Positions 12,952 to 30,294 of a DNA stretch of 32,134 bases are shown here, piece by piece (the stretch's first letter is position 1; every line of letters starts with the position of its first letter). The DNA lies in the IMG/VR virus record IMGVR_UViG_3300034060_000806, positions 1 through 32,134 of that record; one strand, written 5' to 3'. The notes under the pieces were generated by a model, which did not search any database, was not told the origin of the DNA, and saw only the letters and a list, made by a program, of their open reading frames with translations. Both the position numbers and the translations under genes were made by a program. Source of the stretch: a virus (Duplodnaviria; Caudoviricetes).

Positions 12952-13371
12952 ATGGCTGCAACACCGGCAAAACGCAAAGAAAAGTTCGATGCGATCAAAA
13001 AAGAGGAATACCTGAACCTGCTTCGCAACGGGGGACGCCGCCATGTCTCGGCCCGAACCGTTGGCATTGACCCCACAACCGTCCTTGACCACATGAACAA
13101 ATATCCCGAGTTCGCTGACTCCGTTTCCCGAGCGGAGATGGAAGCCAACGAAATGGTCGAAGACGCCCTGTATCAAGCCGCCGTCGCCGGACACGTCACC
13201 GCCTGCCAAGTGTGGCTGTACAACCGAATCCCACAGAACTGGGCCGACAAACGCAATATCAAAGTCCAAGGCGATGCGAACAACCCTGTGCAAGTCCACA
13301 CAACTGTCGATCCTGCCGAGTTAGAAGCAAAGGTGCAGGCTGTCCTGAAGCAGCGCAATGACCGCGGTTAG
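12952..13371 (+). CDS. terS: Terminase small subunit
   Basis: GAAAGGA RBS; HTH followed by VEDALYQAAVAGHVTACQVWLYNRIPQNWADK; overlaps terL. Confidence 0.7.
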   Translation: MAATPAKRKEKFDAIKKEEYLNLLRNGGRRHVSARTVGIDPTTVLDHMNKYPEFADSVSRAEMEANEMVEDALYQAAVAGHVTACQVWLYNRIPQNWADKRNIKVQGDANNPVQVHTTVDPAELEAKVQAVLKQRNDRG

Positions 13372-14980
13372 TACCAGCCTCTACGAAGATTTCCTGAGAG
13401 CCACCCCGGCCGCTCGAATGCGATTGCTTAACAAACTGTCGCCCAGTGAACGTGCCGAATTCGATCTTGTGTTGCAGGAAGAACTTTCTCACCCGTGGTT
13501 TCGTTATGCCCGTGACCCGGTGGGCTTTGTCCGTGATGGCCTCGGGGAAACCATTTGGTCCCGTCAGGCTCAGATCCTCGAATCGGTTCGGGACAACAAA
13601 CGAACTGCCGTACCCGCCTGTCATGCCCCCGGTAAGTCCCACATTGCCGCTAGAGCCGTCTCATGGTGGATCTCTTGTCATGCACCCGGAACGGCTATTG
13701 CGATCACCACGGCCACCACACACCGCCAAGTCCGAAACATTCTGTGGCCCCACATTCGCCGAGTCGCAGTGAGACACAACCTGCCCGGTGAAGTTTTAAC
13801 GACGACATGGAAACTGGACGACGACATCGTTTCCTACGGCTTCTCCCCTTCCGACTATGACGAAACGGCCGTGCAGGGCATCCACGCCCCCCACTTGCTC
13901 ATCGTCGTCGACGAGGCTGGCGGCATCGGACCAATCATCGGCCAAGCCTTAGAAGCCCTCATGACCGGCTCTCACACCCGACTACTATTGCTCGGTAACC
14001 CACCAACCGACTTGGAAGGCTCATGGTTCGAGAACGCCTGTGGGTCAGCGAACTACAACGTCATTCCTATCAATGCGTTTGACACCCCGAACTTCACTGG
14101 CGAAGACGCCGGAATCTGCCACGCCTGCCCGCCTTCAGTGCCTCAGCACTCAGTAGCCACCCACCTTGTCGACCGGGAATGGGTCGAAGACGTCATATCC
14201 GAATTCGGTGAAGAGTCCCCATTCGTTCAAGCCCGTGTATTTGCCCGTTTCCCACGCCAAGTATCGAACAAGGTCATTCCCTTCGATTGGGCTGAAGCGG
14301 CCTCTCAGAACGAATCACCGACCGAATCAATGCGAATCAGGCTCGGAGTCGACGTCGCCGCTGACGGTGGAGACGAATTCGTTATCGCTTGGGCTGACGG
14401 CTACCGGGTTTCCATCAGGCACAACTCATCAGGTTCCGTGAACGCCAACCCTGTCGACGTCGCCGGGAAAATCCTTGAACACATTCATCAGGCCGAGAAG
14501 ATCCACGTCGAAAGGGAACTAACACAGCCGGTTCGAGTCAAGATCGATGCGATTGGTGTCGGCTGGGGTGTCACCGGGATGCTGCAACGCTGGAAAGACG
14601 AGCGTCGCCATGGCGCTGAGATCATCGCCGTCAACGTCGCCGAACGATCCGCTTTCCCCGACAAGTTCCACAATCAACGAGCCGAAATGTGGTGGAACGG
14701 CCGAACCTTGGTGCAACCGGCACCTGACGGCGCTCAGGAGATGCGTTTAGACATTGACCGTCGGGCTATCGCCCAGTTGTCAACCCCGATGTACAAGTCG
14801 GACTCTGCCGGTCGAATCCAAATTGAGAAAAAGTCGGACATGAAACGCCGGGGACAAACCTCCCCTGACCGTGCCGAGGCCGTCCTGCTGGCCGTCTTCG
14901 AGCCTCCGGGCCATGTCGCCCCTCCTGCTGTGCCTGCGATTCAGTTCAAGCAATCAAATGACTGGAATATCAACATTTGA
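13358..14980 (+). CDS. terL: Terminase large subunit
   Basis: Walker A ACHAPGKS, Walker B LIVVDEAG, LLLGNP, nuclease LGVDVA, C-terminal SPDRAEA. Confidence 0.93.
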   Translation: MTAVSTSLYEDFLRATPAARMRLLNKLSPSERAEFDLVLQEELSHPWFRYARDPVGFVRDGLGETIWSRQAQILESVRDNKRTAVPACHAPGKSHIAARAVSWWISCHAPGTAIAITTATTHRQVRNILWPHIRRVAVRHNLPGEVLTTTWKLDDDIVSYGFSPSDYDETAVQGIHAPHLLIVVDEAGGIGPIIGQALEALMTGSHTRLLLLGNPPTDLEGSWFENACGSANYNVIPINAFDTPNFTGEDAGICHACPPSVPQHSVATHLVDREWVEDVISEFGEESPFVQARVFARFPRQVSNKVIPFDWAEAASQNESPTESMRIRLGVDVAADGGDEFVIAWADGYRVSIRHNSSGSVNANPVDVAGKILEHIHQAEKIHVERELTQPVRVKIDAIGVGWGVTGMLQRWKDERRHGAEIIAVNVAERSAFPDKFHNQRAEMWWNGRTLVQPAPDGAQEMRLDIDRRAIAQLSTPMYKSDSAGRIQIEKKSDMKRRGQTSPDRAEAVLLAVFEPPGHVAPPAVPAIQFKQSNDWNINI

Positions 14981-14989
14981 TCGAAAGAC

Positions 14990-15058
14990 TTGCACACCTA
15001 ACCACGGTGTAGTAACTTTGCCTTGGAGGGAGAGGGACTTCCTCCGGAAAAGGACATC
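14990..15058 (+). promoter_or_regulatory. Promoter cassette A
   Basis: TTGCAC-17-TAACTT; CCTAACCACGGTGT in the spacer; hairpin GGAGGGAG-AGGGA-CTTCCTCC; SD GAAAAGG. Confidence 0.8.
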
Positions 15059-15397
15059 ATGAACCTTGCATACCGCCCCTACAACCAATTTGCAGCCGAT
15101 CTTGCCCCCGGTGGCAAGATCACCATTGATGACGCAGTGGTCGGCCATGTAGCGCACTACACGACGGAAAAATGGGGGGCCATGGCTAACGGCAAACCTA
15201 AAGGTCTCGGCCTCTTTGACAATCAGGCCGATGCGATCTTCGCAGTCATCGAAGCCGCCATCACTGAAGATGCACTGGAAACTCACTTCACCGCCATCGA
15301 CAAGTTCGTGACCCAGTTCCACACGGCCGAACAGCAGCAGCAACTCGCACAAATCGACGAAGCCATTGAAGCCGCCAAGTACGGAGAGTACGCATGA
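15059..15397 (+). CDS. Hypothetical protein
   Basis: ATG after the cassette A SD. Confidence 0.7.
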   Translation: MNLAYRPYNQFAADLAPGGKITIDDAVVGHVAHYTTEKWGAMANGKPKGLGLFDNQADAIFAVIEAAITEDALETHFTAIDKFVTQFHTAEQQQQLAQIDEAIEAAKYGEYA

Positions 15398-15618
15398 AAT
15401 TCGTCAAGACCGACAACCGAACCTTTGAAACCGAAGACGGGGCTTATGCGGTTTACCGCTACGCCAACAACAGTTACGCCCTGCAAACTCGTCTGACGTA
15501 CATCGTCTATGAAGGCAAAACCGCCGTCACGGACGAACTCGGCGACTTGGTCACTTTCAAATCAATCACAGATGCGAAGCAATTCGTTATCAACAAAGTA
15601 ATGGGGGTCGCACAATGA
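15394..15618 (+). CDS. Hypothetical protein
   Basis: ATGA overlap, GGAG RBS. Confidence 0.65.
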   Translation: MKFVKTDNRTFETEDGAYAVYRYANNSYALQTRLTYIVYEGKTAVTDELGDLVTFKSITDAKQFVINKVMGVAQ

Positions 15619-15932
15619 CCGACCAACAAATCCCTGAACCTAATTTCATGTCGGGATCCGATATGAATCCGAACCTGCCAATCGAAATCTCAATGTCCAT
15701 CCGAGAATGGTCGCTCATCTGCATGGCGCTCCGAGCCAAGGAACACGACATCGAAGATGCGATTGAAGGAATGCCATCCGAAGCCGCCGCCGCTCAACTC
15801 ACCCGCTACGCAGCGTCGTACACCCACATTCGAGTCTCCCTCCTGAACACCCTCTTGGACGCTGAAGAAAAGTGGATGGACAACGAAGCCCGTGAAATCG
15901 CCGAAATTGAAGAATGGAGAGAAGACCAATGA
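15615..15932 (+). CDS. Hypothetical acidic protein
   Basis: ATGA overlap. Confidence 0.65.
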   Translation: MTDQQIPEPNFMSGSDMNPNLPIEISMSIREWSLICMALRAKEHDIEDAIEGMPSEAAAAQLTRYAASYTHIRVSLLNTLLDAEEKWMDNEAREIAEIEEWREDQ

Positions 15933-16111
15933 AATACATCCTTGAATTCACCGAAAAGGCCACCTACAACTGTGAGGTCATCGCCAACTCCAAGGCTGAA
16001 GCAATCGCCAAGGTCAAGGCAGCCGACTTCGACGTAATGGATATGTGCTGTGGCGGAATGCCCTACGCCGTCAAGGTCATCGGAGTTGTCGAACAGGAAG
16101 TCGACGCCTGA
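15929..16111 (+). CDS. Hypothetical protein
   Basis: ATGA overlap, GGAG RBS; VIANSKAEAIAKV motif common in small phage proteins. Confidence 0.6.
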   Translation: MKYILEFTEKATYNCEVIANSKAEAIAKVKAADFDVMDMCCGGMPYAVKVIGVVEQEVDA

Positions 16112-16299
16112 TGCGATCACCTGAATTCACTGAAGCCGAACTCTTGGCCGTTGAACTGTCGCTCATGGAAACACTGACGATGCTCAACGCTCACATTCGA
16201 GCCTCAGAGCCCGACGATCCGGAGAACCAGCGTCGCCGCCAACTCATCATTCGAGTCCAGCAGGCTTTATTTAAAATCAGGTACACACATCAGCCTTGA
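16111..16299 (+). CDS. Hypothetical protein
   Basis: TGATG overlap with the upstream stop. Confidence 0.5.
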   Translation: MRSPEFTEAELLAVELSLMETLTMLNAHIRASEPDDPENQRRRQLIIRVQQALFKIRYTHQP

Positions 16300-16334
16300 T
16301 CGTGCGTTATCTCAGTGGAAGGCACCAACCATCC

Positions 16335-16399
16335 ACCACACCTAACCGTGGTGTGGTACAGTTACCAACGAGCGAAGGGATCGCTCAGGAAAGGCAAAT
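16335..16399 (+). promoter_or_regulatory. Promoter cassette B
   Basis: ACCACACC-TAACCGT-GGTGTGGT; extended -10 TGG-TACAGT; hairpin GAGCGA-AGGGA-TCGCTC; AGGAAAGG. Confidence 0.85.
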
Positions 16400-16822
16400 A
16401 TGCGAAAACTTCACACAAGCCCAAGGTTCGGCGGTTCGATAGACCTCTACGAACTTGTCGACACTTGTGACGGCGAGCCGTTGGGCGCTACTCACATCGG
16501 CACTGTTGTCGCTACCGAAGGTGGCTTCACCCACGGCAAGACAAATGCTCGCCCCTTTGAGACCCAAGGCGCTGCACTCGTCAACCTCGCAACGATCCAC
16601 TACCGAGGGATCCCGCAACACCTCCTTGACGCCATGCCCGAACTCATGGGCGCTGATGCGTTTGGCTCGGCGATGGACAAGATCGCCGCCGCTGCCAAGC
16701 GTGCAGGAGCCGCTCACGACGCCGCTACCGCACGCTGGGGCTCGAACCCGGCACCGGTTGTCGGCCGCTATGTCACAGGATCGTCAGACAATCCTCTTCA
16801 GGGCCCCGCCTCTCTGAATTGA
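16400..16822 (+). CDS. Hypothetical protein
   Basis: ATG 5 nt after GGAAAGG. Confidence 0.7.
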   Translation: MRKLHTSPRFGGSIDLYELVDTCDGEPLGATHIGTVVATEGGFTHGKTNARPFETQGAALVNLATIHYRGIPQHLLDAMPELMGADAFGSAMDKIAAAAKRAGAAHDAATARWGSNPAPVVGRYVTGSSDNPLQGPASLN

Positions 16823-16835
16823 GTGTGTCTGATGC

Positions 16836-16870
16836 GGCCCCGGGCTCGGACCCGCCCCAAGCCCGGGGCC
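16836..16870 (+). terminator. GC-rich stem-loop after gene
   Basis: GGCCCCGGGCT / AGCCCGGGGCC inverted repeat; no U-tract. Confidence 0.5.
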
Positions 16871-16878
16871 ACGCTCTC

Positions 16879-16944
16879 ACCACACCTAACCCCGGTGTGG
16901 TACCGTCTCCGACGAGGGCAGGGAGCCCTCAGGAAAGGCAAGAC
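16879..16944 (+). promoter_or_regulatory. Promoter cassette C
   Basis: CCACACC-TAACCCC-GGTGTGG-TACCGT; hairpin GAGGGC-AGGGA-GCCCTC; AGGAAAGG. Confidence 0.85.
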
Positions 16945-17229
16945 ATGACCAAAGTATTCGACACCCGAGACCTAAAAGCCCTCAACACCATCGCTGCCCT
17001 AGAGCAGAAGAGCCGAGTCCTCTCCCCGGGGCTGATGCGATTGCTTGACCCCGACGGTTACCACGTTGAGTTCTTCAGCATGATCCACAACGACATCGAA
17101 TTACGACTTGGCCTCATGGTCAAACTCGTCAACACCGACGAACCGGTCGAAGTGTTCCTAGACGTCGACCCCGACACCTACGACCACTACGGCTTCCAAC
17201 ACACCGACGTCTTGAAAGGAACGGCATGA
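16945..17229 (+). CDS. Hypothetical protein
   Basis: ATG after the cassette C SD (the ORF-track start at 16819 is unlikely). Confidence 0.7.
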   Translation: MTKVFDTRDLKALNTIAALEQKSRVLSPGLMRLLDPDGYHVEFFSMIHNDIELRLGLMVKLVNTDEPVEVFLDVDPDTYDHYGFQHTDVLKGTA

Positions 17230-17582
17230 CCAAGACAATGCAAGAACTCAACTACCTCGGCGGATGTCTTCATCCCAAGACCCCTGAAGGCCGTGCATTC
17301 CTTCACCGGGTCTACTGGGCTCACGTCGAAGAACTCCCCAACTACGAAGACCGTGAGGTCGGGCTCTACGAACTCGCCGAAGCCGCCGTGCCCGTCGCCA
17401 CCCAAGAACAGTGGATGGTGTTCGCTGACTTAGGTGGCTGGATGGTCGACGTCGACGAAGTCATGGGCGACGAAGGCACCCCTGCCGAACGAATGCGAAT
17501 CGCTTTGTGCATGGTCGCCGACCTACTCATGGCAGGACTCGAAGCAGAACACATTGAACAGGAAGGCAAGGTGACGGCATGA
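17226..17582 (+). CDS. Ocr-like acidic protein (candidate DNA mimic / anti-restriction)
   Basis: 118 aa, acidic; LYELAEAAVPVATQEQWMVFADLG resembles the T7 Ocr core [24 protein letters not shown] (recalled from memory). Confidence 0.5.
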   Translation: MTKTMQELNYLGGCLHPKTPEGRAFLHRVYWAHVEELPNYEDREVGLYELAEAAVPVATQEQWMVFADLGGWMVDVDEVMGDEGTPAERMRIALCMVADLLMAGLEAEHIEQEGKVTA

Positions 17583-17761
17583 CCCGAATGCCATCAATTG
17601 TTGGTATCGCTATCGACATGAAAACAGACAGGATCATGAGTTACGTCGGGAACCTCGGCGATGTCCGCAAATGGGCTGCCGAACTCTCAGACCCTCACAC
17701 CAGTATCCAAATCCGGGAAATCGGCGAAATCGTTATGTTCGTCGGAGAGGTGAAGTCATGA
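17579..17761 (+). CDS. Hypothetical protein
   Basis: ATGA overlap. Confidence 0.55.
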   Translation: MTRMPSIVGIAIDMKTDRIMSYVGNLGDVRKWAAELSDPHTSIQIREIGEIVMFVGEVKS

Positions 17762-18243
17762 AAGCCCGCAATCACGACAACCTGATGTCATGGCCTCACG
17801 GCTATTTCGAGGATTTTTACAGAGAAGACCGCCACCCCAATGCCGAGTCAATCCGGACGGCCGTCGAAACAACCCTGACCACGAGTCGGGCCGATGCGAT
17901 TGTCCGAGACAGTGGCAGTGCCTCGCAAACAGCGTGGCCCGAAGACGACCCTGAAGGCTTGCAGTGGAAGGTCAGCGAAATCCTGAGGCTCTTTCAGTCT
18001 CGTCCCGCAACTGGCGCTGTCGAAGAGTTCTTTGTCGGCGAGCGTCACATGGAGAGAAGCAAATATGTGAGCGTCACCGTTTGGGATCATTCGGTGAAGC
18101 ACTCCACGCCGGAAAACCCTGCCTGCTACACGACCGTTTATCACGTCGACGAATTGCCTCTCCATTACCAAGGCTATGAACTCCCGTATGCGAGCCGTGG
18201 CTTGCAAATCCGGGCTTTGTTCACCTTTGGTGTTGGTGATTGA
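17758..18243 (+). CDS. Hypothetical protein
   Basis: ATGA overlap, GAGGTG RBS. Confidence 0.6.
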   Translation: MKARNHDNLMSWPHGYFEDFYREDRHPNAESIRTAVETTLTTSRADAIVRDSGSASQTAWPEDDPEGLQWKVSEILRLFQSRPATGAVEEFFVGERHMERSKYVSVTVWDHSVKHSTPENPACYTTVYHVDELPLHYQGYELPYASRGLQIRALFTFGVGD

Positions 18244-18303
18244 CAGTTTCTACCGGGGTTGCCCTACACTGGGGTTGACCGATGCGACCACGGGAGGATC
18301 CCG
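18240..18303 (+). promoter_or_regulatory. Degenerate promoter/operator variant
   Basis: TTGACA-19-TACACT containing CTACCGGGGTTG; small hairpin CGGGA-GGA-TCCCG before ATG 18304. Confidence 0.4.
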
Positions 18304-18642
18304 ATGACCGATTTTCGTAACGTGATGACACACACTGCATTGCACGGTGAAGAGGCCGAAGTTGAGTGGGCCCATTCCCTTGTCGACGAACTCTCCGAGG
18401 CTTACGGGCTGCACTGGGCCGGTCTCATGGAAGATCCTGAGATCGAAGCCCAAGACGCTCTGTTTGCCACGACCGACGAGTTCAACCGGCTGGGGATCGA
18501 ACGCCTTCAGGCCACCAACATGGGTGATGCGATTGAACGGATCTTCCTGACCGCCCTGATTGAGAAGAATCCGGGGCTCGGGAATCTGTTGGAGCATGAG
18601 GCCGAGCAGCGAAAGCGGATCATCATCCCCACAGCGTCCTAA
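18304..18642 (+). CDS. Hypothetical acidic protein
   Basis: GGAGG RBS before ATG 18304. Confidence 0.6.
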   Translation: MTDFRNVMTHTALHGEEAEVEWAHSLVDELSEAYGLHWAGLMEDPEIEAQDALFATTDEFNRLGIERLQATNMGDAIERIFLTALIEKNPGLGNLLEHEAEQRKRIIIPTAS

Positions 18643-18693
18643 CTGTGGTAGAGTTTCAGTGAAGCGGAGGGACCGCTTCAGAAAGGCAGCAGC
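18629..18693 (+). promoter_or_regulatory. Promoter cassette D
   Basis: CCACAG-CGTCCTAA-CTGTGG-TAGAGT; hairpin TGAAGCGG-AGGGA-CCGCTTCA; GAAAGG. Confidence 0.8.
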
Positions 18694-18975
18694 ATGAACA
18701 CCATCACATCAGCCCAATTCAAGGAACTTACCCAAGTTCTCTACGCCAAAGACATCGTCGATTCGATGGATGACGTCGAAGTTGAGGAACATTCCGGGTA
18801 TGCCCCACGAATCGCAATCACGATGAGTCAAGGAATCGACATGGCGGTTCAATGCGGTGCAGCAATCGGCTCTATTCCGGAACTCGCTCATCTCGTCAAA
18901 AACGCTGTAGTCGAGGGCGATTGCCGGATCGGCACTGTGTACATCGACAACTACAAGGTGGAGGAAGCAGCATGA
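18694..18975 (+). CDS. Hypothetical protein
   Basis: ATG after the cassette D SD. Confidence 0.7.
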   Translation: MNTITSAQFKELTQVLYAKDIVDSMDDVEVEEHSGYAPRIAITMSQGIDMAVQCGAAIGSIPELAHLVKNAVVEGDCRIGTVYIDNYKVEEAA

Positions 18976-19178
18976 AAACAATCACCGTCGACCTCTCAAA
19001 GACGATCGGACAAGAGTCCGCCATTAAGGCGAACGGCTCGCCGATCTTCGACATTGAGGTGACGCTCCCGGCTGTCAAGGATGAACTGAACCCCATTGCA
19101 GGATTCGGTCGGGTCGTCTCAGCAGGACCGGTCAAAGGTCATGAGGTTCTGTTCACGGCCGATGCGATTGTCCAATAA
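18972..19178 (+). CDS. Hypothetical protein
   Basis: ATGA overlap, GGAGG RBS. Confidence 0.6.
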   Translation: MKTITVDLSKTIGQESAIKANGSPIFDIEVTLPAVKDELNPIAGFGRVVSAGPVKGHEVLFTADAIVQ

Positions 19179-19180
19179 CC

Positions 19181-19244
19181 ACCACACCTAACCCCGGTGT
19201 GGTATTCTTCAGGTGAAGGCAGGGAGCCTTCGGAAAGGCAGCAC
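19181..19244 (+). promoter_or_regulatory. Promoter cassette E
   Basis: CCACACC-TAACCCC-GGTGTGG-TATTCT; hairpin GAAGGC-AGGGA-GCCTTC; GGAAAGG. Confidence 0.85.
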
Positions 19245-19403
19245 ATGACCAAAACCAACAACGCCGAGGCGCTTGCCCGACTGTTCGAAATTTGGAACGT
19301 CGCTGTCGAAGCCGCACTCGCCAACGGATTCAGCAAGAAAGACGCCGCCGAGGCAGTCGGCATTTGGCTTGACCAGCAACTTGACGGAAAGGAATCAGCA
19401 TGA
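19245..19403 (+). CDS. Hypothetical protein
   Basis: ATG after the cassette E SD. Confidence 0.65.
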   Translation: MTKTNNAEALARLFEIWNVAVEAALANGFSKKDAAEAVGIWLDQQLDGKESA

Positions 19404-19657
19404 CCAAGATCCACGAAGGGTTCGAGTGGACCGTCGATATCGACCAGTCCGGAGAACTCAACTACCACGACCAGCCCACCCTCATCCTCTTCATCATCAA
19501 TGAGGAAACCGGTGAACCAATCAATGCGATTGGCGGAATCGACGTTGATTACACCGTCTCCGACCACGGCAACATCCACATCCACCCCGACCATGAGCCC
19601 TACATCGTCGACCTCGCCAACGCCTACATCGAAGATGCACTGGAGGAAGCAGCATGA
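19400..19657 (+). CDS. Hypothetical acidic protein
   Basis: GGAAAGGA RBS, ATGA overlap. Confidence 0.65.
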   Translation: MTKIHEGFEWTVDIDQSGELNYHDQPTLILFIINEETGEPINAIGGIDVDYTVSDHGNIHIHPDHEPYIVDLANAYIEDALEEAA

Positions 19658-19830
19658 CCCACCCACTCGCTAAGCACTGGACGCCCAACGATTCGGTCTG
19701 TGAAATCTGCGGCCAACAATTCGCAGAGAACATTCCCGAAGCCGATATGTGGCATCCCCAGTACGAAGAACACGGATCGCTAGTCGTTCACAAAGCCTGC
19801 GGAGAACAACGAGGAATGGAGTACTCATGA
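19654..19830 (+). CDS. Small Cys/His protein (58 aa, absent from the ORF track)
   Basis: MTHPLAKHW..CEICG..HKACG; GGAGG RBS; ATGA overlaps at both ends. Confidence 0.6.
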   Translation: MTHPLAKHWTPNDSVCEICGQQFAENIPEADMWHPQYEEHGSLVVHKACGEQRGMEYS

Positions 19831-20072
19831 GCATCAACTACCCAATTGACGTCACGATCGACGGTCTCTGCGACCTAATTGAAATGGCTGAAGGCGAAGT
19901 CTCTAAACCGGTCGGAGAACATTCTCTGCCAACAATCGGAGAAGAGTTTATCTGCATCACGCCAGCACAAGCCGATGCGATTCTCACCCAAGTCTCAAAC
20001 CTCCAAGAAGAAATCCTTGACCTCATGGAAATCATCAACCCGCTTGACCCCGACGAGGAAGGCGAATCATGA
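19827..20072 (+). CDS. Hypothetical acidic protein
   Basis: ATGA overlap, GGAG RBS. Confidence 0.6.
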   Translation: MSINYPIDVTIDGLCDLIEMAEGEVSKPVGEHSLPTIGEEFICITPAQADAILTQVSNLQEEILDLMEIINPLDPDEEGES

Positions 20073-20323
20073 ACGCACCACACGAATTTTTTGAACCTTT
20101 GACCTCCGAAGAAATTATCGATGCCATTGACCTCACCTATGAGGTTTTTGCCGACCCGATCCTCCGAGATTCGCTGCTCATGACGGCAGGGGACTACCAA
20201 CCTCACGTTCGAGACCGCATTACAGCCCTGTACCACGAAGCCGCCACAACCCTCGCCGTCCTAACCGCCGCCCTAGAAATCGCCGCCAAGACTCAAACCG
20301 TCTCGGCTGATGCGATTGCCTAG
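20069..20323 (+). CDS. Hypothetical protein
   Basis: ATGA overlap. Confidence 0.6.
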   Translation: MNAPHEFFEPLTSEEIIDAIDLTYEVFADPILRDSLLMTAGDYQPHVRDRITALYHEAATTLAVLTAALEIAAKTQTVSADAIA

Positions 20324-20355
20324 ACGCTTCCATCTCACCCCTGTAGAGTCGACCC

Positions 20356-20505
20356 ATGGCTATCGAACCGAAGAACGTCCCGTCTTACATCGCTGAAGAC
20401 GAGGATCTTGAAGGTATCCCCGACCCAAACCTCACCGGATCTCTTCGAGGCACCCTCGTTGACCATCACGGGCAACCGCTGGAGGTTCCTGATGGCGACC
20501 GCTGA
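20356..20505 (+). CDS. Small acidic ORF (49 aa), probably leaderless
   Basis: TAGACG-17-TAGAGT, then ATG 6 nt later; MAIEPKNVPSYIAEDEDL. Confidence 0.45.
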   Translation: MAIEPKNVPSYIAEDEDLEGIPDPNLTGSLRGTLVDHHGQPLEVPDGDR

Positions 20506-21247
20506 ACAGGTACTTGACCTTTCCCGGTCTCAACTCGGCAACGGACCCAAGAAATACACAGACTGGTACCCCTCAGGAAATGTGGCTTGGTGCTGCATCT
20601 ACCAAAGTTGGGTTCTGTCGGAATGTGGACTCCCAACTCATTACGCTTGGGTCTCGGCCCTATTCGATGCGATGAGAGCCGACGGCAGGAACACTTACGA
20701 CATTCGATCCGCAATGCCCGGTGACCTAATCGCCTTCGAGTGGGGATCCACGGCCGGTGGCTACGACCACATCGCCATGGTGGAATCCGTAGACGGCAAC
20801 GGGGTCACCGCAATCAATGGCAACTGGGGCAACAAAGTCACCCGTGCATGGCACTCGTTTAACGGCGGCGGCATCGCCGAAATCGCCCGACCTGCATACT
20901 CAAACACCCCGAGCCCCGGACCCACACCAACCCCGGGCCCCATCAATGCGAAGGAAAAATCCATGTTTCATCTCAAAAACACCGACGGTCGCGACGAATA
21001 CATCGCCCTCACCGACGGCGGACAAGTTGTGTCCTGTTGGTCGGTAACCCCGAACGGCAAGATCGGCCCTTGGGTCGAACTGAAGCCCGGTATCGCCGGA
21101 TCAAACCTTGTTGCTGAATACGCCCCCGACGGCCGTCTCTGCGTAACCCTCGCCGCCACTGGCGAACTGTGGGGGTCATGGCAGGCAGCACCATCACAGG
21201 GCCCATGGTGTGACTGGTTCCGAGTCAACGACCTTCGGGGCCTCTGA
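20492..21247 (+). CDS. CHAP-domain peptidoglycan hydrolase (endolysin candidate)
   Basis: GGAGG RBS; AWCCIYQSW (Cys), PGDLIAF, DHIAMVE (His), INGN; Pro/Thr linker; Trp-rich C-terminal domain. Confidence 0.85.
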   Translation: MATAEQVLDLSRSQLGNGPKKYTDWYPSGNVAWCCIYQSWVLSECGLPTHYAWVSALFDAMRADGRNTYDIRSAMPGDLIAFEWGSTAGGYDHIAMVESVDGNGVTAINGNWGNKVTRAWHSFNGGGIAEIARPAYSNTPSPGPTPTPGPINAKEKSMFHLKNTDGRDEYIALTDGGQVVSCWSVTPNGKIGPWVELKPGIAGSNLVAEYAPDGRLCVTLAATGELWGSWQAAPSQGPWCDWFRVNDLRGL

Positions 21248-21254
21248 TAACACC

Positions 21255-21476
21255 ATGTCTGAAACCTCCGACCCTGATGCGATCAACCAAGACGCCCGAA
21301 TTGAACTCGGTGGCGTCCACATCGTTCGCATCTTGGAACCGGACGGCACCATGTCCCTAGAAATCAGCACCGACGACGAAGTCGACCCGTGGACTGCCAT
21401 CGGCATGATCCGAGTCGCTTTGCAATGGGAACTGGACGCTTATCCATTCCCCGATATCAACGACGACAACTTCTGA
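21255..21476 (+). CDS. Hypothetical acidic protein
   Basis: ATG 7 nt after the lysin stop. Confidence 0.55.
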   Translation: MSETSDPDAINQDARIELGGVHIVRILEPDGTMSLEISTDDEVDPWTAIGMIRVALQWELDAYPFPDINDDNF

Positions 21477-21584
21477 TGATCGAATGGTTCGGCTTTGCAG
21501 CGTTCTGTGCAGTGCTGGCCCTTTGGTGGATCATCGGCGGAATCGACGATTAAGTCTTCAACTACCACCCCCAAGGAGAAACAA

Positions 21585-21974
21585 ATGAAGAACCGCAAGA
21601 TCCTCGGCGCTTTGTGTGCCGTTGTAGTCATGGCAGTGCCCCTCATCGGATGCGAATCATCCGAAACGACGGGAACAACTGCTCCTGAAAAAGTAACAAC
21701 GACGACAGCCAAGAAAGCCTCGGCCATTGACGTTTACGTTGCTTCAATGAAGGTCAAGTACCCGAACTCCAGTGACGCTCAACTCATTGACCTCGGCAAG
21801 ACCTCTTGTGAAGTAATCGATGCGTTTGGCTCTGTCGCTGACGCCATCTTTGCTATTGCTGAAGATCCGACTTGGGATCGAGAGATGGCCCGCAACGCCG
21901 GGTACACGTTCGGAGCGGCAGTACCAGTGTTCTGTCCCGAGTACACGGCTGAGATGAAGGCGCTTGTGGACTGA
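21585..21974 (+). CDS. Lipoprotein (DUF732-like)
   Basis: AAGGAG RBS; signal peptide with lipobox LIGC; LIDLGKTSC and AAVPVFCPEY. Confidence 0.7.
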   Translation: MKNRKILGALCAVVVMAVPLIGCESSETTGTTAPEKVTTTTAKKASAIDVYVASMKVKYPNSSDAQLIDLGKTSCEVIDAFGSVADAIFAIAEDPTWDREMARNAGYTFGAAVPVFCPEYTAEMKALVD

Positions 21975-22345
21975 TGTCTCAGGATCTTGTTCGGCGGCTT
22001 CGTGCATGGGCTGAAATCAATGGTGACGAACTGTTCACTGAAGCCGCCGACGAGATTGAGTGGATGCGTTCGAAGAGTGACGCTGCTGCTCTCCTAAAAG
22101 TCAATCGGACACTTGCCGAACGCAACTCCGAGATCCTGAAGTTGAAAGACGAGATCCGGGGCTTGCAGGAAACTGTTGACGGACTCGTAAAAACCATTGA
22201 CGCGATTGTCCCCGAAGAGGGAATGGTTGATGTCACGCTCGCACGCGAGACCGTTGAGAAAATGATTGGCCCTTGGTACCTCGTAAAGAAACCGATGGCC
22301 GACGAATTCCGAAAGGCTTGTAAGGACGCTTTATGCCTGAGTTGA
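21974..22345 (+). CDS. Hypothetical coiled-coil protein
   Basis: TGATG overlap; DLVRRLR..EAADEIE motif common in phages. Confidence 0.6.
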   Translation: MSQDLVRRLRAWAEINGDELFTEAADEIEWMRSKSDAAALLKVNRTLAERNSEILKLKDEIRGLQETVDGLVKTIDAIVPEEGMVDVTLARETVEKMIGPWYLVKKPMADEFRKACKDALCLS

Positions 22346-22977
22346 ACGCCAGTATCCCGCCCATTGAATGCTTTGTTCGAGGCAACTTCCTGCGACAGCA
22401 ACAAGACAGTCACGAAAAAAAGTTCCCAGTAGTCATTTTCGGTGTCGCCTCAGTGCAGCATCGGAGCCCGCTGTTTCACTTCCTGATGGAAGACGGAGCG
22501 ATTTGGTGGAGGATGCCGATTTCAGCGTTCTGCTGGAAAGAAGACTCCCCTGAAATTGATTTGCACGACCTCGTTCTTTGGAACTCTTTCTCACCGTATG
22601 TCTCAGTTACGCAATTCGCTCATATGCGAAACATGAGGATGACGTACAGAGACAGAACTGGCAAAGAAATCAGCGGCAAATACCTGATGACCCTTGACTG
22701 GCATTCCGCCGACTCAAACACCTTGGATATCGGCTATTCAGAGAACCCCGGCCAACACAAGTGTGGACACGTCATTGAACGAGACGACGGCAACTATGCG
22801 ATTCAACCAAACAACCGATGCCGTATGTTCGAGCCTTCCTTCACCGTAAAGATGGGCCAAAACGTCATAGACAGGCTGATTAACTTTGACTTGTGGGACG
22901 TCGAAGACGCTGCCAAGTCGATCACCGAAGACTCCGATGCGTATGAATACGGGCTCAGCAGCGAAGAAAAGAAATGA
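22333..22977 (+). CDS. Conserved phage protein of unknown function
   Basis: 214-aa ORF with LNASIP, RMPISAF, HKCGH and QPNNR motifs. Confidence 0.65.
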   Translation: MPELNASIPPIECFVRGNFLRQQQDSHEKKFPVVIFGVASVQHRSPLFHFLMEDGAIWWRMPISAFCWKEDSPEIDLHDLVLWNSFSPYVSVTQFAHMRNMRMTYRDRTGKEISGKYLMTLDWHSADSNTLDIGYSENPGQHKCGHVIERDDGNYAIQPNNRCRMFEPSFTVKMGQNVIDRLINFDLWDVEDAAKSITEDSDAYEYGLSSEEKK

Positions 22978-23234
22978 ACGCTGAACACCTTTGGACGTGG
23001 ATCCTCTTCGCGTTCGAGATCGTCGGCGTCACTGGCACTTGGATTGTTGGGCAACGTCGCCTGTGGTGGGGATGGCTCATCATCCTGATTCATTCAATCC
23101 CTTGGGTCGTGTACAGCATCGTGTACAACAAGCCCGGGTTTATCGCTATGGCTGTTATGTGGTGGTCGGTGAATTTGGCGAATGCGATTAAGTGGCGCTC
23201 CGAAAAGAAATCCCTAACTGGGGTTGCGGACTAA
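22974..23234 (+). CDS. Small Trp-rich membrane protein (about 3 TM, PnuC-like)
   Basis: Three hydrophobic segments; ATGA overlap. Confidence 0.6.
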   Translation: MNAEHLWTWILFAFEIVGVTGTWIVGQRRLWWGWLIILIHSIPWVVYSIVYNKPGFIAMAVMWWSVNLANAIKWRSEKKSLTGVAD

Positions 23235-24617: not shown

Positions 24618-25484
24618 ATGACTGATTTCCATGCAGAACTTGTGGCCGATCTCAATGCGATTGGTGTTGAGGTTGAAAAGGCGAAGATGTCTCGCTCCGA
24701 GGCCGGTCGTGTAGCGGCGAACGCCCGTTGGGGAAACAAGGGTGGCGCTCCAAAGATGGTTGACTGGCGTTCGGCAGCAGGGATCTCTGCCGCTGAGCAA
24801 AAGTCCAATGCCCGCTCGAAGTCGGCGATGCAAGGCGCACGCACTCGGGCTCAGAACAAAGAAGCAAACACCCGCACCCCGGGGAGCATCCAAGCCGAAA
24901 TGGAACGCGCTGGCGTCCCCAAGAAAACGATTGATGCGATCACCAAAAACCCTCTCGGTTCTGCCTCAGCGAAAGCAACGGCGGCTCACATCAAACGAGT
25001 AAAAGACGTCAACGGTCTGTCTTCGAAGCAAAAGGCCAAGTACAACGAAAAAATGGATATGGCGACGCCCGGGATGAGCCCGGACATGAAGCATCAAGAC
25101 GCCATTACATACGCTTTAGATGCAAAGGCGGCTAGACCACGCGCTACTGCTGCCCGTGCCGCAGCATCCGCACGATTCAAAACAGTCGCCTCTCAAACTT
25201 CAGGCAAAAAAGTATTTACTTCTTCAACAGTTCCCAACCCGGGCATGAGGGCACCAGTATCCGCCCACAAAGAGGCTATTGCCGCGGCTGAATATCATTT
25301 AGAGAACTCGAAGTTAACTGGCGCTCAAACAAAGAAACTCAACAACACTGTCAGACGTTCAAAGGATGCGATTGATCGGCTTGAACGTCCCGAATACAAC
25401 GCCTTAAAAGACCGTGCATTAAGAGATATGCCAAGCCGAAACAACGGAGGAAGTCGTGGCACGGGATACCTTGTCGGAAGATGA
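24618..25484 (+). CDS. Basic Ala/Lys-rich protein sharing its leader and AANARWGN tag with the giant protein
   Basis: TATCTT lies 6 nt before the ATG (leaderless-type); MTDFHAELVADLNAIGVEVEKAKMSRSEAGRVAANARWGNKG. Confidence 0.7.
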   Translation: MTDFHAELVADLNAIGVEVEKAKMSRSEAGRVAANARWGNKGGAPKMVDWRSAAGISAAEQKSNARSKSAMQGARTRAQNKEANTRTPGSIQAEMERAGVPKKTIDAITKNPLGSASAKATAAHIKRVKDVNGLSSKQKAKYNEKMDMATPGMSPDMKHQDAITYALDAKAARPRATAARAAASARFKTVASQTSGKKVFTSSTVPNPGMRAPVSAHKEAIAAAEYHLENSKLTGAQTKKLNNTVRRSKDAIDRLERPEYNALKDRALRDMPSRNNGGSRGTGYLVGR

Positions 25485-25497
25485 GGTCACGGAGCCA

Positions 25498-28400
25498 ATG
25501 GCTAAAATTTTTCACGAACGGTTGATCGCTGACCTTGAAGCCATGGGTTATGCGATTGGCCCTGTCACTAAAGCCGACACTTACACACCCCCCGAGGGTG
25601 TGCAGTCTGCTGCCCGACGGGCCCTGAAACTCATTGCTGACGGTCACGCTGGTGACGGTTTTACTGATGTCGGCCGTAAACGTGCCTCAGACCTTGCTGC
25701 TGGCCGTTCAGTGAGCCTCAATACGGTGAAACGTATGCACTCCTATTTCGCCCGTCATGCCGTCGATAAGCAAGGCAAAGACTGGGACAACGCTGAGAAA
25801 CCATCGCCGGGGAAGGTTGCTTGGCTCGCTTGGGGTGGCGATGCCGGTAAGTCTTGGGCTGATGCGATTGTCGATCGTGACAACGTGACTAAGGCGTACA
25901 AACGGAAATATGCCACTCGCGAAGAGGCTGCACGCGCCGCCGCCAACGCAAGGTGGGGCAATCGAACGCCTGATGTACCTGAGGTCAAAGAAAAGCCGAC
26001 CAAAAAAGTCGATCCCGTCAAAGAGGCTTACCGTGCTTTCCAAGCGGAAGCCAAAAAGAAAAAGAACCTTGAAAAGACTTTGGAACTCGAAAAGGTTTGG
26101 CTGAATGCTGTCCGTGATAATGCTCCACCTAAGGGTGACTGGCGTGAATGCGATTCAATCAAAGAAGCAAAAGCACAGTTCTACGGTCAAGGTTGGATGA
26201 CCGAAGTTCATTTCGGGAAATTGTCTGTTCCGATGGTCAACGAAGTTTGCAAGACATGGAACGAACTCGGAACGAAATATCCGGAAGTTGCTGCTTACGT
26301 TGAAGTCCTTGGTGGGCATAGCGGTTTGCGTGATGCAGGGGAATTGCCGGTAAAAAAGTTTTCTGCCTTAGGCACCGCCTTTTACGGTCCTCGCACGATT
26401 GCCTTAAATGACTCTTATTCGCGTGACCAATACGAAGATTTTGCTCAACGTGCCGCAGCGACGGGGTTTCACCCTCCGAGAACCGGAGCGAAGGGTGACG
26501 GCGTCAGGTCCGTTCTTGTCCATGAGTTTGGGCACATGGTCGGTCGGAAAACGGGTTTGTCACAAACAGAGGCTGCTATCAAAGAAGTGCGTTCAAGTCG
26601 CCCTGCTGGCATTAGAGAAAAAACTGTAAAAGAATTCACCAAAACCAATCTTTCTGAATACGCCACTAGAAATTCTGACGAAGCCTTTGCTGAGGCCTTC
26701 ACCGAATACCACATGAGCCCTAACCCTCGGCCTCTTGCTACCGCAATCGTTGAACGCTCATTTGATGCGATTGGTAAGACCGAGTGGAAACGAGACACTG
26801 TCGCCAAGGCGTACAAACGGAAGTACGCAACTCGGGAGGAAGCGGCTCGGGCGGCCGCTAATGCTCGCTGGGGTAACCGGACGCCGAAGGTTGATGCTCC
26901 AGCCGAACCCGCCGGACCGGTAATCGAGCCGTGGGTCGATCAAAAATCCGCTGCCGCTGTCGACAGGGAATTCAATCGACGTTGGGGCAATCGCACATTG
27001 ATGCGTTTGACTGGCCTTTCACCCGAAGCCGCTAACGGCTCTGCCGAGGCAATCAACGAATTACTGACCCTGTATCCGGACACGACGTTGCATTTGGTTG
27101 GCACTCAAACCGGTATTTCACAGATGATTAAATCAGGTACCTATCCGCCCGGAACTCCTGAGAGTGTCAAGTCCCTTGCATCTCGGGGCCGTTACCCGAA
27201 AATGAATTTAAGTGAGGGTGGCGATTACTCCCCCCAGTTGCAATTCATTCGAATCAATAAGAACAATCACTCGTCCGATGGTTACGGAAGTGTTTCGACG
27301 CGACTCTCCGAGGAAACAGGTTGGTATACGCCAACTGGTTTTCCAGTTGGCGCAGGTCAACCTGAAGGCATTCGTCACGCAGCAAAACGATCGATGGTTC
27401 ATGAGTTCGGCCACGCGATTGACTTACACCCAAAAAGGAATTCTCTTCCAAGTGATTTCAGCAATTCAAACAATCCAATTACTAAAGCAACCCGAGAAAT
27501 CACTGGCGCTCCGGCAAGTTCCGCTGCGGCAAACAAAGCGGTTATCGAAACCAATATTGGAACCTACGCCGCCACCAATGCAAAAGAATTGTTTGCTGAG
27601 ACTTTCACCGAATACCACATGAACCCTGCGGCCCGTCCGTTGTCTGTTGATTTCGTGAAGTTTCGGATGGGTGAAATTGGGGTGCCTCTTGCTGCTCCGT
27701 CAACGCTTGGCACGATTGCTAAGGCTTACAAGCGGAAATATGGATCTCGGGCCGAGGCTGCCCGGGCCGCAGCGAACGCTCGCTGGGGAAACAAGGGCTC
27801 TGCAACACAGGAAACTTCCGCAGCCGATGATGCGGTTTACAATCCGTCACCCAAAGAGATGTTGGCCGGAAAAACTGCAAGCGGAAGAAAACTTAGAAAC
27901 ACGTTTTCCCAAACGCCGGTCAACGGTTACAACATAGAAACCGATCCTCGACCTTTCGGTTCAGCACCGGAACATTTGAAACGTGGCGCTCTTCTACTTC
28001 AAGGCACCGGACAGGCTTTATGGCAGGTCACTTCCGTCAAGGGAGACGTCTTGCGCTCAAAGCCGGTTTACGACAAATACGGACGCAAGATTTACAAGCC
28101 CGGGACTTCACAGTCATTGCTTCGTCAGTATTGGGATAATGTCACGGCCGTGAAAGGAAACGCTGCCGATCTTCCCGATCAAGACGATGCGATCGCTAAG
28201 GCGTACAAGCGGAAGTACGCGACTCGTGCTGAGGCTGCACGCGCGGCCGCGAATGCACGTTGGGGAAACAAAGGCTCAACTTCTACTGCTGCTCCTGCCG
28301 AGCCCAAGCCACAAATTACTAAAGAGACCGACAAGGTTCTCCGCCAGTTTGCCCAAGCCGGATATGCCGCACAAACCGGTATGGGCATGAGGCAACAAAA

Positions 28401-30294
28401 AGGCCAATTGCACGTCGGTGTTGACGACACATCTGTGACGATCACGGATCTTTATGCGATGCAAAAGTTTCCCCGGTCGGATCCCCGAGCCAAGGCTTTG
28501 TTGGCTTATCAACCTGAAGGCAAATCAAGTTTCACTGTCAAAATCGGCAAAGGAGGCAAAGTCGGTTTGCATCCGGAGCAAAACGGTCCTGATATGAACT
28601 CTTCAACAATTGATGAACTGACCAAAAAGTCCCGTGTCGACATTGGTGGCTTCAAACCAATCCCCACAATTGAGGGCAGCAAACAACAGTACGTTGCTAC
28701 CGAAGTCAAAAACCCTAAGACAAAAGAAACTGCAACTGTTTATTTGCGACGGGATCAGTACGACGGGATTCTCGCCAGTCAACCTCCCGGAACCGAATTG
28801 AAAGTCGGTTTTGGAGAAAATTATCGAGGCAAATCCCGGATACTTTCTGTTGTCGCTATCAATAATGGCGAGAAAGTCGCTGCCGTCATGGCTATGGGCC
28901 CAAATTTTGATCCCACTACTGGGGGCGATGGAAGGCTGACGGTGAAGAAGGTTGTCTCTGTTCACGATATGAGGGCACCTGTCGAAGACGATGCGATTAC
29001 CAAGTTTGTTTCTTCAAAGCGTTCTGCTGCCGGTCGTAAGGCTGCCGAGGCTCGATGGGGTAAGCGTCTAAAGAAATTCCCGAAAGCATTGGGACGGATG
29101 ACGCCACGGCAGCGAGCAAGTCTGATGCTCAGTGCCGATAAGCCTGCAAAGGTCAAATTCGTGGGCCCTGAAGGCAAGACAGAAGAGGCGCTCCGTGACG
29201 ACGCCGGAAATGTTGTAACTGAGCGCATGAACCCTTCGACCGAGTACAAGCGACGTCTTTACGGGTCGGATTCTTGGGTTCAAACGGGCAAGGGCCCGGT
29301 GCTTGGCCCGAAGTTGAAGCGCAAGAAGAAGGTTCAGGGAAACGCTGTTCGAGAACTTGCACGGGTGCGGTTTGCCGATGCTCCTGTTCAAAAGGCTGGT
29401 GATCGTTCTGCTGCTGGTCGTAAGGCTGCCGAGGCTCGATGGGCAGGTCATCAAAAAAAACAAACTCAATCATCACCGCCTGCTGACAAACCAATTTTCA
29501 GCAGAGAAGAACACGCTATTGCTATTGCCTTGGTTGAACGAGTAGCGATTGAAGAACCGGCCCTGACGAAACAAATGGAAGATTTCGCCGAGGAATTTGG
29601 TGGTGAACTGACCGGTTTGCAGAACCGATTGAAGAAGTCGGGCTCTTTGGCTCGTAAAATCCATATGGATGCGATTGAAAAGAGTCTTTCTCCGGAGGCT
29701 GCCGCTGCTCAAATAAAAGATGCTGTCCGGTACACAATGATTCTGCCTGACACTAACTACGGTTTGTCGGGCCAAGCAATTGTTGATAGGCTCAGAGCCG
29801 AAGGAAATGACGTAAAAGTCAAAAATACTTGGTCCCCTGATTCTGAATACAAGGGGATTAACTTGCAGGTGTACAACAAGAAAAAAGGATTTTGGTCTGA
29901 ACTGCAACTGCATACGCCGCAATCATTTGCTACAAAAAACGAAACTCACAAGATTTATGAGTTAGAGCGGGTTGAAAAAGATCCCAAGAAAAAAGCGTTG
30001 TACACAGCGCAGATGAAAGCGGCCTCCGGCAGTTTGCGTATTCCGCCCCGGGCCGAAGTCATCAAATCAAAGGAGGACAGCATGAAAGAAATTTGGTGGA
30101 AACGGGTCTCAGACGATGGGGAAACTGTTTACAGCGTGTGGCACGCTCACGGCCCTGAATCGATGATGGAAAAGAATTATGCCGGTGAATGGGTCGACGC
30201 TTCCGAGCAGTACTTCACTCCGTTCGAAGAGACCGATTTCATTGAAATTTCAGAAGACGAAGTCGAAGCCGTCTTGAAAGACTTGACGGCCTAA
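25498..30294 (+). CDS. Giant multidomain (polyvalent-type) protein: conserved phage N-domain, two HEXXH zincins, unknown domains, RelA/SpoT-like nucleotidyltransferase, acidic tail
   Basis: About 1598 aa; HEFGH at 26521 and 27400, each followed by YA..N..E.FAE.F; RLKK..SLARKI, DAVRYT, YKGIN, ELQLHT, HKIYE; six repeated basic linkers. Confidence 0.85.
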   Translation: MAKIFHERLIADLEAMGYAIGPVTKADTYTPPEGVQSAARRALKLIADGHAGDGFTDVGRKRASDLAAGRSVSLNTVKRMHSYFARHAVDKQGKDWDNAEKPSPGKVAWLAWGGDAGKSWADAIVDRDNVTKAYKRKYATREEAARAAANARWGNRTPDVPEVKEKPTKKVDPVKEAYRAFQAEAKKKKNLEKTLELEKVWLNAVRDNAPPKGDWRECDSIKEAKAQFYGQGWMTEVHFGKLSVPMVNEVCKTWNELGTKYPEVAAYVEVLGGHSGLRDAGELPVKKFSALGTAFYGPRTIALNDSYSRDQYEDFAQRAAATGFHPPRTGAKGDGVRSVLVHEFGHMVGRKTGLSQTEAAIKEVRSSRPAGIREKTVKEFTKTNLSEYATRNSDEAFAEAFTEYHMSPNPRPLATAIVERSFDAIGKTEWKRDTVAKAYKRKYATREEAARAAANARWGNRTPKVDAPAEPAGPVIEPWVDQKSAAAVDREFNRRWGNRTLMRLTGLSPEAANGSAEAINELLTLYPDTTLHLVGTQTGISQMIKSGTYPPGTPESVKSLASRGRYPKMNLSEGGDYSPQLQFIRINKNNHSSDGYGSVSTRLSEETGWYTPTGFPVGAGQPEGIRHAAKRSMVHEFGHAIDLHPKRNSLPSDFSNSNNPITKATREITGAPASSAAANKAVIETNIGTYAATNAKELFAETFTEYHMNPAARPLSVDFVKFRMGEIGVPLAAPSTLGTIAKAYKRKYGSRAEAARAAANARWGNKGSATQETSAADDAVYNPSPKEMLAGKTASGRKLRNTFSQTPVNGYNIETDPRPFGSAPEHLKRGALLLQGTGQALWQVTSVKGDVLRSKPVYDKYGRKIYKPGTSQSLLRQYWDNVTAVKGNAADLPDQDDAIAKAYKRKYATRAEAARAAANARWGNKGSTSTAAPAEPKPQITKETDKVLRQFAQAGYAAQTGMGMRQQKGQLHVGVDDTSVTITDLYAMQKFPRSDPRAKALLAYQPEGKSSFTVKIGKGGKVGLHPEQNGPDMNSSTIDELTKKSRVDIGGFKPIPTIEGSKQQYVATEVKNPKTKETATVYLRRDQYDGILASQPPGTELKVGFGENYRGKSRILSVVAINNGEKVAAVMAMGPNFDPTTGGDGRLTVKKVVSVHDMRAPVEDDAITKFVSSKRSAAGRKAAEARWGKRLKKFPKALGRMTPRQRASLMLSADKPAKVKFVGPEGKTEEALRDDAGNVVTERMNPSTEYKRRLYGSDSWVQTGKGPVLGPKLKRKKKVQGNAVRELARVRFADAPVQKAGDRSAAGRKAAEARWAGHQKKQTQSSPPADKPIFSREEHAIAIALVERVAIEEPALTKQMEDFAEEFGGELTGLQNRLKKSGSLARKIHMDAIEKSLSPEAAAAQIKDAVRYTMILPDTNYGLSGQAIVDRLRAEGNDVKVKNTWSPDSEYKGINLQVYNKKKGFWSELQLHTPQSFATKNETHKIYELERVEKDPKKKALYTAQMKAASGSLRIPPRAEVIKSKEDSMKEIWWKRVSDDGETVYSVWHAHGPESMMEKNYAGEWVDASEQYFTPFEETDFIEISEDEVEAVLKDLTA
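25885..28269 (+). repeat. Four 26-aa repeats [VI]xKAYKRKYxxRxEAARAAANARWGN
   Basis: At 25885-25962, 26800-26877, 27715-27792 and 28192-28269; the copies use different synonymous codons. Confidence 0.95.
29020..29443 (+). repeat. 40-bp near-identical direct repeat encoding RSAAGRKAAEARW
   Basis: 29020-29059 versus 29404-29443, one mismatch. Confidence 0.9.
30082..30294 (+). CDS. Putative in-frame internally initiated 70-aa acidic protein (immunity-like)
   Basis: AAGGAGG (30070-76) lies 5 nt before an in-frame ATG immediately after the RelA/SpoT-like domain. Confidence 0.55.
   Translation: MKEIWWKRVSDDGETVYSVWHAHGPESMMEKNYAGEWVDASEQYFTPFEETDFIEISEDEVEAVLKDLTA

Follow-up and report, generated by a model that had tools for sequence, protein, structure and literature searches.

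The product of gene P0001, found in a tailed phage from lake water, is a polyvalent protein made of swappable modules. A short leader is followed by a row of cargo domains, most of which open with the same peptide tag placed behind a lysine site. This leader/site/tag/cargo layout recurs in four genes of the phage, and modules are gained, lost and exchanged at the tags among its relatives. The layout is real and well supported, and from it we infer a mechanism: on site statistics and by analogy, P0001 is probably, though far from certainly, head cargo that is cut at its lysine sites by the phage's own XkdF-family protease.

The window analysed is the whole 32,134-base contig of the phage, and all 24 runs listed for the sequence are lake-water metagenomes; 5 of these may be its source, and none is an RNA run. 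It starts with tape measure and tail genes and encodes the terminase at 12952-14980 and a CHAP lysin at 20408. The terminase is parted from the cargo and portal genes by about 8 kb (14980-23234), taken up by the lysin and by small genes that mostly lack an assignment. A transglycosylase-like domain, GP88 and DUF732 (all by Pfam) are also encoded in the window and a WhiB gene just beyond it, which, together with relatives of the protease in Arthrobacter phages, suggests an actinobacterial host. Two further contigs extend the sequence: L001 is 100% identical to the window across 16,637 bases, and L086 to L001 across 3,810. From these overlaps we gained a Mu-type portal, a 2275-aa MuF protein, a Zeta-kinase protein and an XkdF protease, the last encoded beside the portal and MuF genes. 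From the polyprotein gene it is about 2.8 kb downstream to the portal gene, across unrelated ORFs. This puts P0001 in a context of virion genes, as polyvalent proteins have, and we count the separation against P0001 being head cargo cut by XkdF. Another locus (L088) has a portal 77% identical and a gene layout like that of this phage. The phage's own scaffold and capsid genes, sought with tape-measure and protease queries, were not recovered.

The initial annotation had divided P0001 at eight boundaries of the form [VI]xK[ASF] and held that every module carries a basic AAxARW tag. All eight boundaries are present (VTKA 23, VTKA 130, VAKA 435, IAKA 740, IAKA 899, ITKF 1167, VQKA 1297 and VIKS 1521; Table 1). 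The statement on tags was too wide: eight sites give nine pieces, and the tag stands behind six of the eight sites, being absent from the leader, the first domain (residues 26-132) and the last piece (1524-1598). The pattern occurs 11 times in P0001 against 2.9 in shuffled sequences, a count reached in 1 of 2000 shuffles, but this enrichment is not independent evidence since the pattern was fitted to these sites, four of which lie in repeated copies. Three of the 11 matches are intradomain (VKKF 285, ITKA 661 and IEKS 1393), as are the near-matches LKKF 1191 and LKKS 1378. Two features here count against cutting by XkdF: ITKA 661 and IEKS 1393 fall within enzyme domains, and the ITK/F boundary has an atypical P1' residue. 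We predict that the 25-aa leader is a head-targeting propeptide. It is shared with the upstream gene at 24618, whose product has no family match in Pfam or PHROGs and whose relatives (P0035-P0037, P0040) keep the N-terminal part while the rest varies. No joints skipping a module were present in the contigs of 4 of the 24 listed runs.

Table 1. Features of the polyprotein gene and the gene upstream of it (window coordinates)
Feature	Position	Strand	Remarks
Upstream 288-aa gene	24618..25484	+	Same leader, VEKA site, one tag; basic
Polyprotein gene P0001, 1598 aa	25498..30294	+	ORF call; GGAG ahead of ATG
Leader, 25 aa, ends VTK	25498..25572	+	Common to ORF 24618 and relatives' stand-alone cargo genes
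First domain, untagged, 107-aa, helical, PHROG 2859 region	25573..25893	+	
Tag 1 + zincin 1 (HEFGH at 342)	25894..26808	+	
Tag 2 + zincin 2 (HEFGH at 635)	26809..27723	+	
Tag 3 + small beta-rich domain (low-confidence model)	27724..28200	+	
Tag 4 + predicted sliding-clamp-like (DnaN/PCNA) two-domain fold	28201..29004	+	
Short tag 5, behind ITKF, + basic module (33 K/R vs 12 D/E)	29005..29394	+	
Short tag 6 + SaEAS/Apk-like alarmone synthetase domain	29395..30066	+	
Acidic C-terminal piece, untagged, 70 aa from M1529	30067..30294	+	
Possible internal start	30070..30084	+	AAGGAGG 5 nt ahead of in-frame ATG 30082

The four long tags of P0001 are conserved in protein and diverged in codons, as had been claimed: they have 21-26 of 27 residues in common, whereas base identity is just 72-79% and each pair shows 11-18 synonymous differences. 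When all 10 long tags of the phage are compared, identity is 82, 85 and 43% at codon positions 1, 2 and 3. The total for the phage is 15 tags in four genes, encoding the polyprotein, the ORF 24618 product, the MuF protein and the Zeta-kinase protein.

A tag that did not coincide with domain boundaries in homologues had been named among the grounds for rejecting the processed-polyprotein idea. We compared 47 tag-bearing proteins, two of them from the window itself, at E values up to 10 (module map P0001-P0049). Architecture varies among P0001 orthologues, and modules are lost or swapped at the tags, which thus mark true module boundaries. One relative (P0010) equals P0001 minus zincin 1, tag to tag, with the junction inside a tag; in two others (P0016, P0017) a zincin of the MuF-gene type sits in the counterpart of P0001's gene. 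Module 4 also occurs in stand-alone genes (P0025, P0026, P0027), as do zincin 2 (P0029) and modules 3 and 4 together (P0020), each with its own P0001-like leader ended by a lysine site. In P0024 such a leader is internal, ahead of a synthetase. The phage's MuF protein (L086 2399-9226) has seven tagged modules with four zincins among them, two ART-PolyVal-like domains (Pfam match for one; 38% identical to each other) and a further domain that, by its motif, we take to be ParB-like. P0001 itself has no PF04233 match, the MuF domain being in this separate protein. That the same tag opens seven modules of a MuF protein is comparative evidence for the proposed association of P0001 with the head. 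In some relatives (P0009, P0013-P0015, P0022) the ART/ParB-like part has a gene to itself, whose product begins with a 70-aa domain of its own.

The prohead protease that the initial annotation had called for is a candidate Lys-specific enzyme of the XkdF family, encoded beside the portal and MuF genes (PF14550, E 1.8e-8; His and Ser motifs present), whose domain begins at VVKS. We compared head and other proteins for sites of the form [VILM]xK[ASG], a search for such sites in scaffold and capsid having been suggested. Putative scaffolds of relatives are rich in them and capsid proteins of relatives are not. Putative scaffolds of 12 related loci, so labeled by position and composition, carry 93 sites against 13.8 expected (6.7-fold); PHROGs leaves this protein unnamed and calls the next, small site-free protein scaffold, and the Ottawa record gives head fiber. 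In relatives, 15 major capsid proteins have no propeptide or N-terminal site and 12 sites against 10.8, nine of the 15 with one common internal site, while the small proteins ahead of the capsid gene (14) have none against 7.1 expected. In this phage, the XkdF protein carries 5 sites against 0.9 expected, the tail proteins 3 against 4.3 and 27 other ORFs 10 against 10.5. Cargo interiors are at background as well (6 against 4.8 in P0001 and 6 against 5.6 in the MuF protein), so we rejected the idea that cargos avoid the motif. Since folded cargos do not avoid it, cutting would have to be restricted to exposed linkers.

Similar relationships were seen in cultured phages. Among records of cultured phages, 17 match the protease domain; 14 of these are Arthrobacter phages, at 58-65% identity, and the putative scaffolds of two of the latter, Edmundo and Ottawa, carry 7 sites against 1.2 expected and 8 against 1.1. 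Edmundo has neither of the two tags described here, and its one match to a zincin of this type (28 aa, E 0.005) is not credible. The first domain of P0001 offers another view of the site. Where it occurs in XkdF-bearing loci, a lysine site lies upstream in 11 of 11 rows and downstream in 10 of 11 (65 rows in all), whereas in 10 of the 65, all from one lineage (L002-L016), it has RYA/KEA ends and a lysine site on neither side. These ends are possibly another protease code, and the difference fits a lineage-wide protease specificity. XkdF has been suggested as a head-processing peptidase (PMC7824862); in the largely open-access literature searched, neither the specificity of XkdF nor this tag was seen to be described. 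The N-terminal domains of XkdF proteases are swappable: that of this phage is Cys-rich (L086 11363-11950), and that of Edmundo (L198 14669-15781) is annotated as RNA ligase in sister records.

A profile search with the tag, of the kind that had been suggested for listing cargos, returned 74 cluster representatives with 153 tags. A hydrophobic-x-K site stands within 14 aa ahead of 141 of the 153 (background 17%), a count that is partly circular because the profile included the K site; in 59 of these 141 the spacing from site to tag is shorter than in the query. In the Zeta-kinase protein the tag lies about 25 aa behind the nearest site, which counts against cutting by XkdF. The families in 59 scanned representatives were DUF3626 (19), ADP-ribosyltransferase (7), GNAT (7), XkdF plus Zeta (1) and MuF (1), with no match in 24. 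The core helix of the tag also occurs in replication-initiator-like proteins, terminase small subunits (at their C-termini) and repeat proteins, which suggests that it binds nucleic acid. In 11 such non-cargo proteins, picked by eye, 3 of 16 copies stand behind a site. The tag has no match in PHROGs or in 50,697 cultured phage records, and a known Pfam family was rejected as its identity, there being no real family for 14 of 14 members. A degenerate copy of the helix (AAHDAATARWG) was seen in ORF 16400-16822, which has no family match.

A sister clade fills the same slot differently. In L091, L130, L159 and about 50 other loci, an unrelated His-rich tag (HxxHDQxTHGxW) directly behind the lysine site opens cargo modules. 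It occurs in 55 of 197 loci and the ARW tag in 9 (two phages), with both in none; a site precedes it in 238 of 244 distinct contexts, in loci that were not found by that motif. The slot is thus conserved and the tag peptide is not. This weakens the earlier proposal of a basic, DNA-binding tag as a general principle.

P0001 holds at least two disparate domains: two zincins, a predicted clamp-like fold and an alarmone synthetase. Both zincins are present as first described (HEFGH motifs, by Pfam), with ExFAE downstream at 395 and 697. The first domain is highly conserved, has no Pfam family and gave a confident model (pLDDT 91.6), whose best hit among solved structures reached Z 5.0 with no clear match; elsewhere it belongs to viral proteins annotated as prohead protease (8 of the best 50), XkdF (4) or portal. 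Module 4 is predicted to have a sliding-clamp-like (DnaN/PCNA) fold. From a mediocre model (mean pLDDT 53), rows 1-31 of the structure search were all clamps (best Z 6.2, rmsd 4.9, 167 aligned), Foldseek matched clamps at E 1.2e-4, and a homologue search gave 6 proteins, all of this phage group. The ESM Atlas had no usable match for module 4 or module 3. No identity was found for modules 3 (ESM Atlas and PHROGs; its model was too poor) and 5 (PHROGs). ATLF (Pfam) and XopAD (NCBIfam) were rejected as identities, the matches reflecting the zincin and synthetase folds (XopAD scored 85 against a cut-off of 2000).

The RelA/SpoT-like domain that had been noticed in P0001 is, by sequence, an intact SaEAS/Apk-like alarmone synthetase. 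It matches SaEAS (PDB 8VX3) at E 9e-17, and the active-site Asp, Arg, Lys, Asn, Glu and Gln named in the covered part of PMC12691689 are kept, by alignment spacing. Of 17 distinct related synthetases, 16 are followed by a separate ORF that has a small N-terminal domain, and this small domain is often the N-terminus of the XkdF gene (8 of 17; L091 15963, L130 20418 and L147 10887 among them). IapK likewise follows Apk2 (PMC12226406, in the part covered). We regard the C-terminal piece of P0001 as a candidate IapK-like immunity domain, and as a candidate only, because its likeness to that small domain is weak (probability 12.7). The VIKS boundary may mark an internal translation start instead of a cut, since AAGGAGG and the in-frame ATG 30082 stand directly behind it. 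A stretch of 32 bases spanning VIKS, the ribosome-binding site and the ATG (window 30057-30088) is all that one contig of run X6 has in common with the window; the flanks differ on both sides, and the match may be chance or another phage.

We propose that the leader would load the polyprotein into the prohead, judging from the MuF, portal and protease context and from analogy with T4. The XkdF-family protease, to which the site statistics point, would then cut after the hydrophobic-x-Lys sites and free up to six enzymes, each beginning with the same basic helix. On weaker grounds, the tag as the new N-terminus may hold each enzyme on the packaged DNA in the head and let it leave with the genome, and the cargos would act early in the host. 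Either a cut at VIK/S or a separate start at ATG 30082 would part the synthetase from its candidate inhibitor. We favor DNA as the tag's partner, docking to protease or capsid being only slightly less likely in our view. A bolder reading, which we put forward tentatively and think rather doubtful, is that freshwater actinophages follow a general grammar: leader loading, XkdF cutting, a lineage-specific tag (the basic ARW helix here, the His-rich peptide in the sister clade) that docks enzymes on the genome for co-ejection, and a cut that arms the synthetase by removing a tethered inhibitor.

The protein could instead stay whole, site and tag being a linker cassette (for solubility or nucleic-acid binding) that provides recombination joints for shuffling. 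The junction inside a tag in P0010, which lacks zincin 1, would suit such a cassette, as would the two short tags of P0001, near-identical in DNA (97.5% over 40 bp) unlike the long tags, and the background level of the motif within cargos; packaging or transfer without cutting is known for some polyvalent proteins (PMC5512222), which also counts against cutting by XkdF. We nevertheless think it unlikely, because the long tags have kept their protein sequence while identity at their third codon positions has fallen to 43%, and because a cassette leaves unexplained why the motif stands before two unrelated tags and at leader ends and crowds the putative scaffolds. Release by the polyprotein's own zincins, in the head or after injection, is the model stated for polyvalent proteins in the covered text of PMC5512222, where embedded MPTases do the cutting, and intact HExxH...E zincins are at hand, two in P0001 and four in the MuF protein. 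Here, however, the lysine sites common to putative scaffolds point to XkdF; site and tag are found in the zincin-free P0020, P0025 and P0009 (where cleavage in trans is possible), and Edmundo pairs XkdF with a site-dense putative scaffold but has no such zincin, so we consider autoprocessing improbable. That P0001 acts outside the virion, as a cytoplasmic host-takeover protein of infection, seems very improbable to us: its gene has no portal or capsid gene as a neighbor and it lacks a MuF domain, but modules move between the polyprotein gene and the MuF gene (P0016, P0017), and in other proteins its first domain is joined to prohead proteases, XkdF and portals.

There is a fair, if lesser, chance that head cargo is cut at these sites and that the tag is no DNA anchor but a protease-docking (prime-side) element or a binder of inner capsid, portal or scaffold. 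The unrelated His-rich tag in the same slot agrees with this, and the tag always lies just behind the site, at variable spacing. A docking element fits less well with the strongly basic character of the tag, with the same helix lacking a site in replication-initiator-like proteins and terminase small subunits, which act on DNA, and with the untagged sites of leader and scaffold, which seem to work without one.

The layout described here is a variant of polyvalent proteins with a T4-like maturation logic. Polyvalent proteins of the phage type, for which likely packaging, processing and injection have been proposed (Iyer et al., 2017; PMC5512222), similarly combine many unrelated domains per chain, among them zincin MPTases, RelA/SpoT, ART and ParB-like domains, in a late-gene context; the repeated tag and leader per module seen here were found nowhere in the covered text of that paper. 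T4 gp21 cleaves behind L/I-X-E; it breaks up the scaffold and trims off capsid-targeting propeptides (PMC9026906). Both it and SPN3US gp245 (A-X-E) are prohead proteases that cut at a three-residue motif, as proposed here (PMC9026906, PMC10052503). In both phages, according to the covered parts of these papers, the scaffold is cut many times and short N-terminal propeptides, in T4 those of the internal proteins and Alt, bring basic proteins into the head that are later ejected. Unlike in T4, the predicted P1 residue here is Lys rather than Glu, the protease belongs to the XkdF family and the capsid proteins of relatives lack a propeptide; moreover, many mature enzymes would arise by the cutting of a single chain, each keeping a common tag, whereas T4 removes only propeptides. 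The synthetase resembles Apk2/IapK of the MuF polymorphic toxins (PMC5576092, PMC12226406) and SaEAS (PMC12691689), as far as the covered parts describe them, in type, in head-gene context and in the small gene that comes next in relatives. It differs from Apk2/IapK in lying outside the MuF protein as one of several cargos, and in that the candidate immunity domain is joined to it in frame and has a ribosome-binding site of its own.

The way in which polyvalent phage proteins are parted into active enzymes has stood as a proposal since 2017, and this phage offers a specific site, protease and tag for it. The layout predicts the specificity of the XkdF family, whose members in cultured Arthrobacter phages are 58-65% identical to the protease here. 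Should the predicted functions of leader and tag hold, proteins would be loaded into actinophage heads in a manner like that of the T4 CTS.

The window also contains 28 copies of ATGCGATTG (999-31763), 28 on the + strand and 0 on the - strand, across tail, replication and cargo genes. We found no link between this repeat and the ARW tag. The repeat is rare in L091, L096, L097, L130 and L159, and it is polar also in L082, L165, L088 and L167 (5, 5, 7 and 7 copies against 0).
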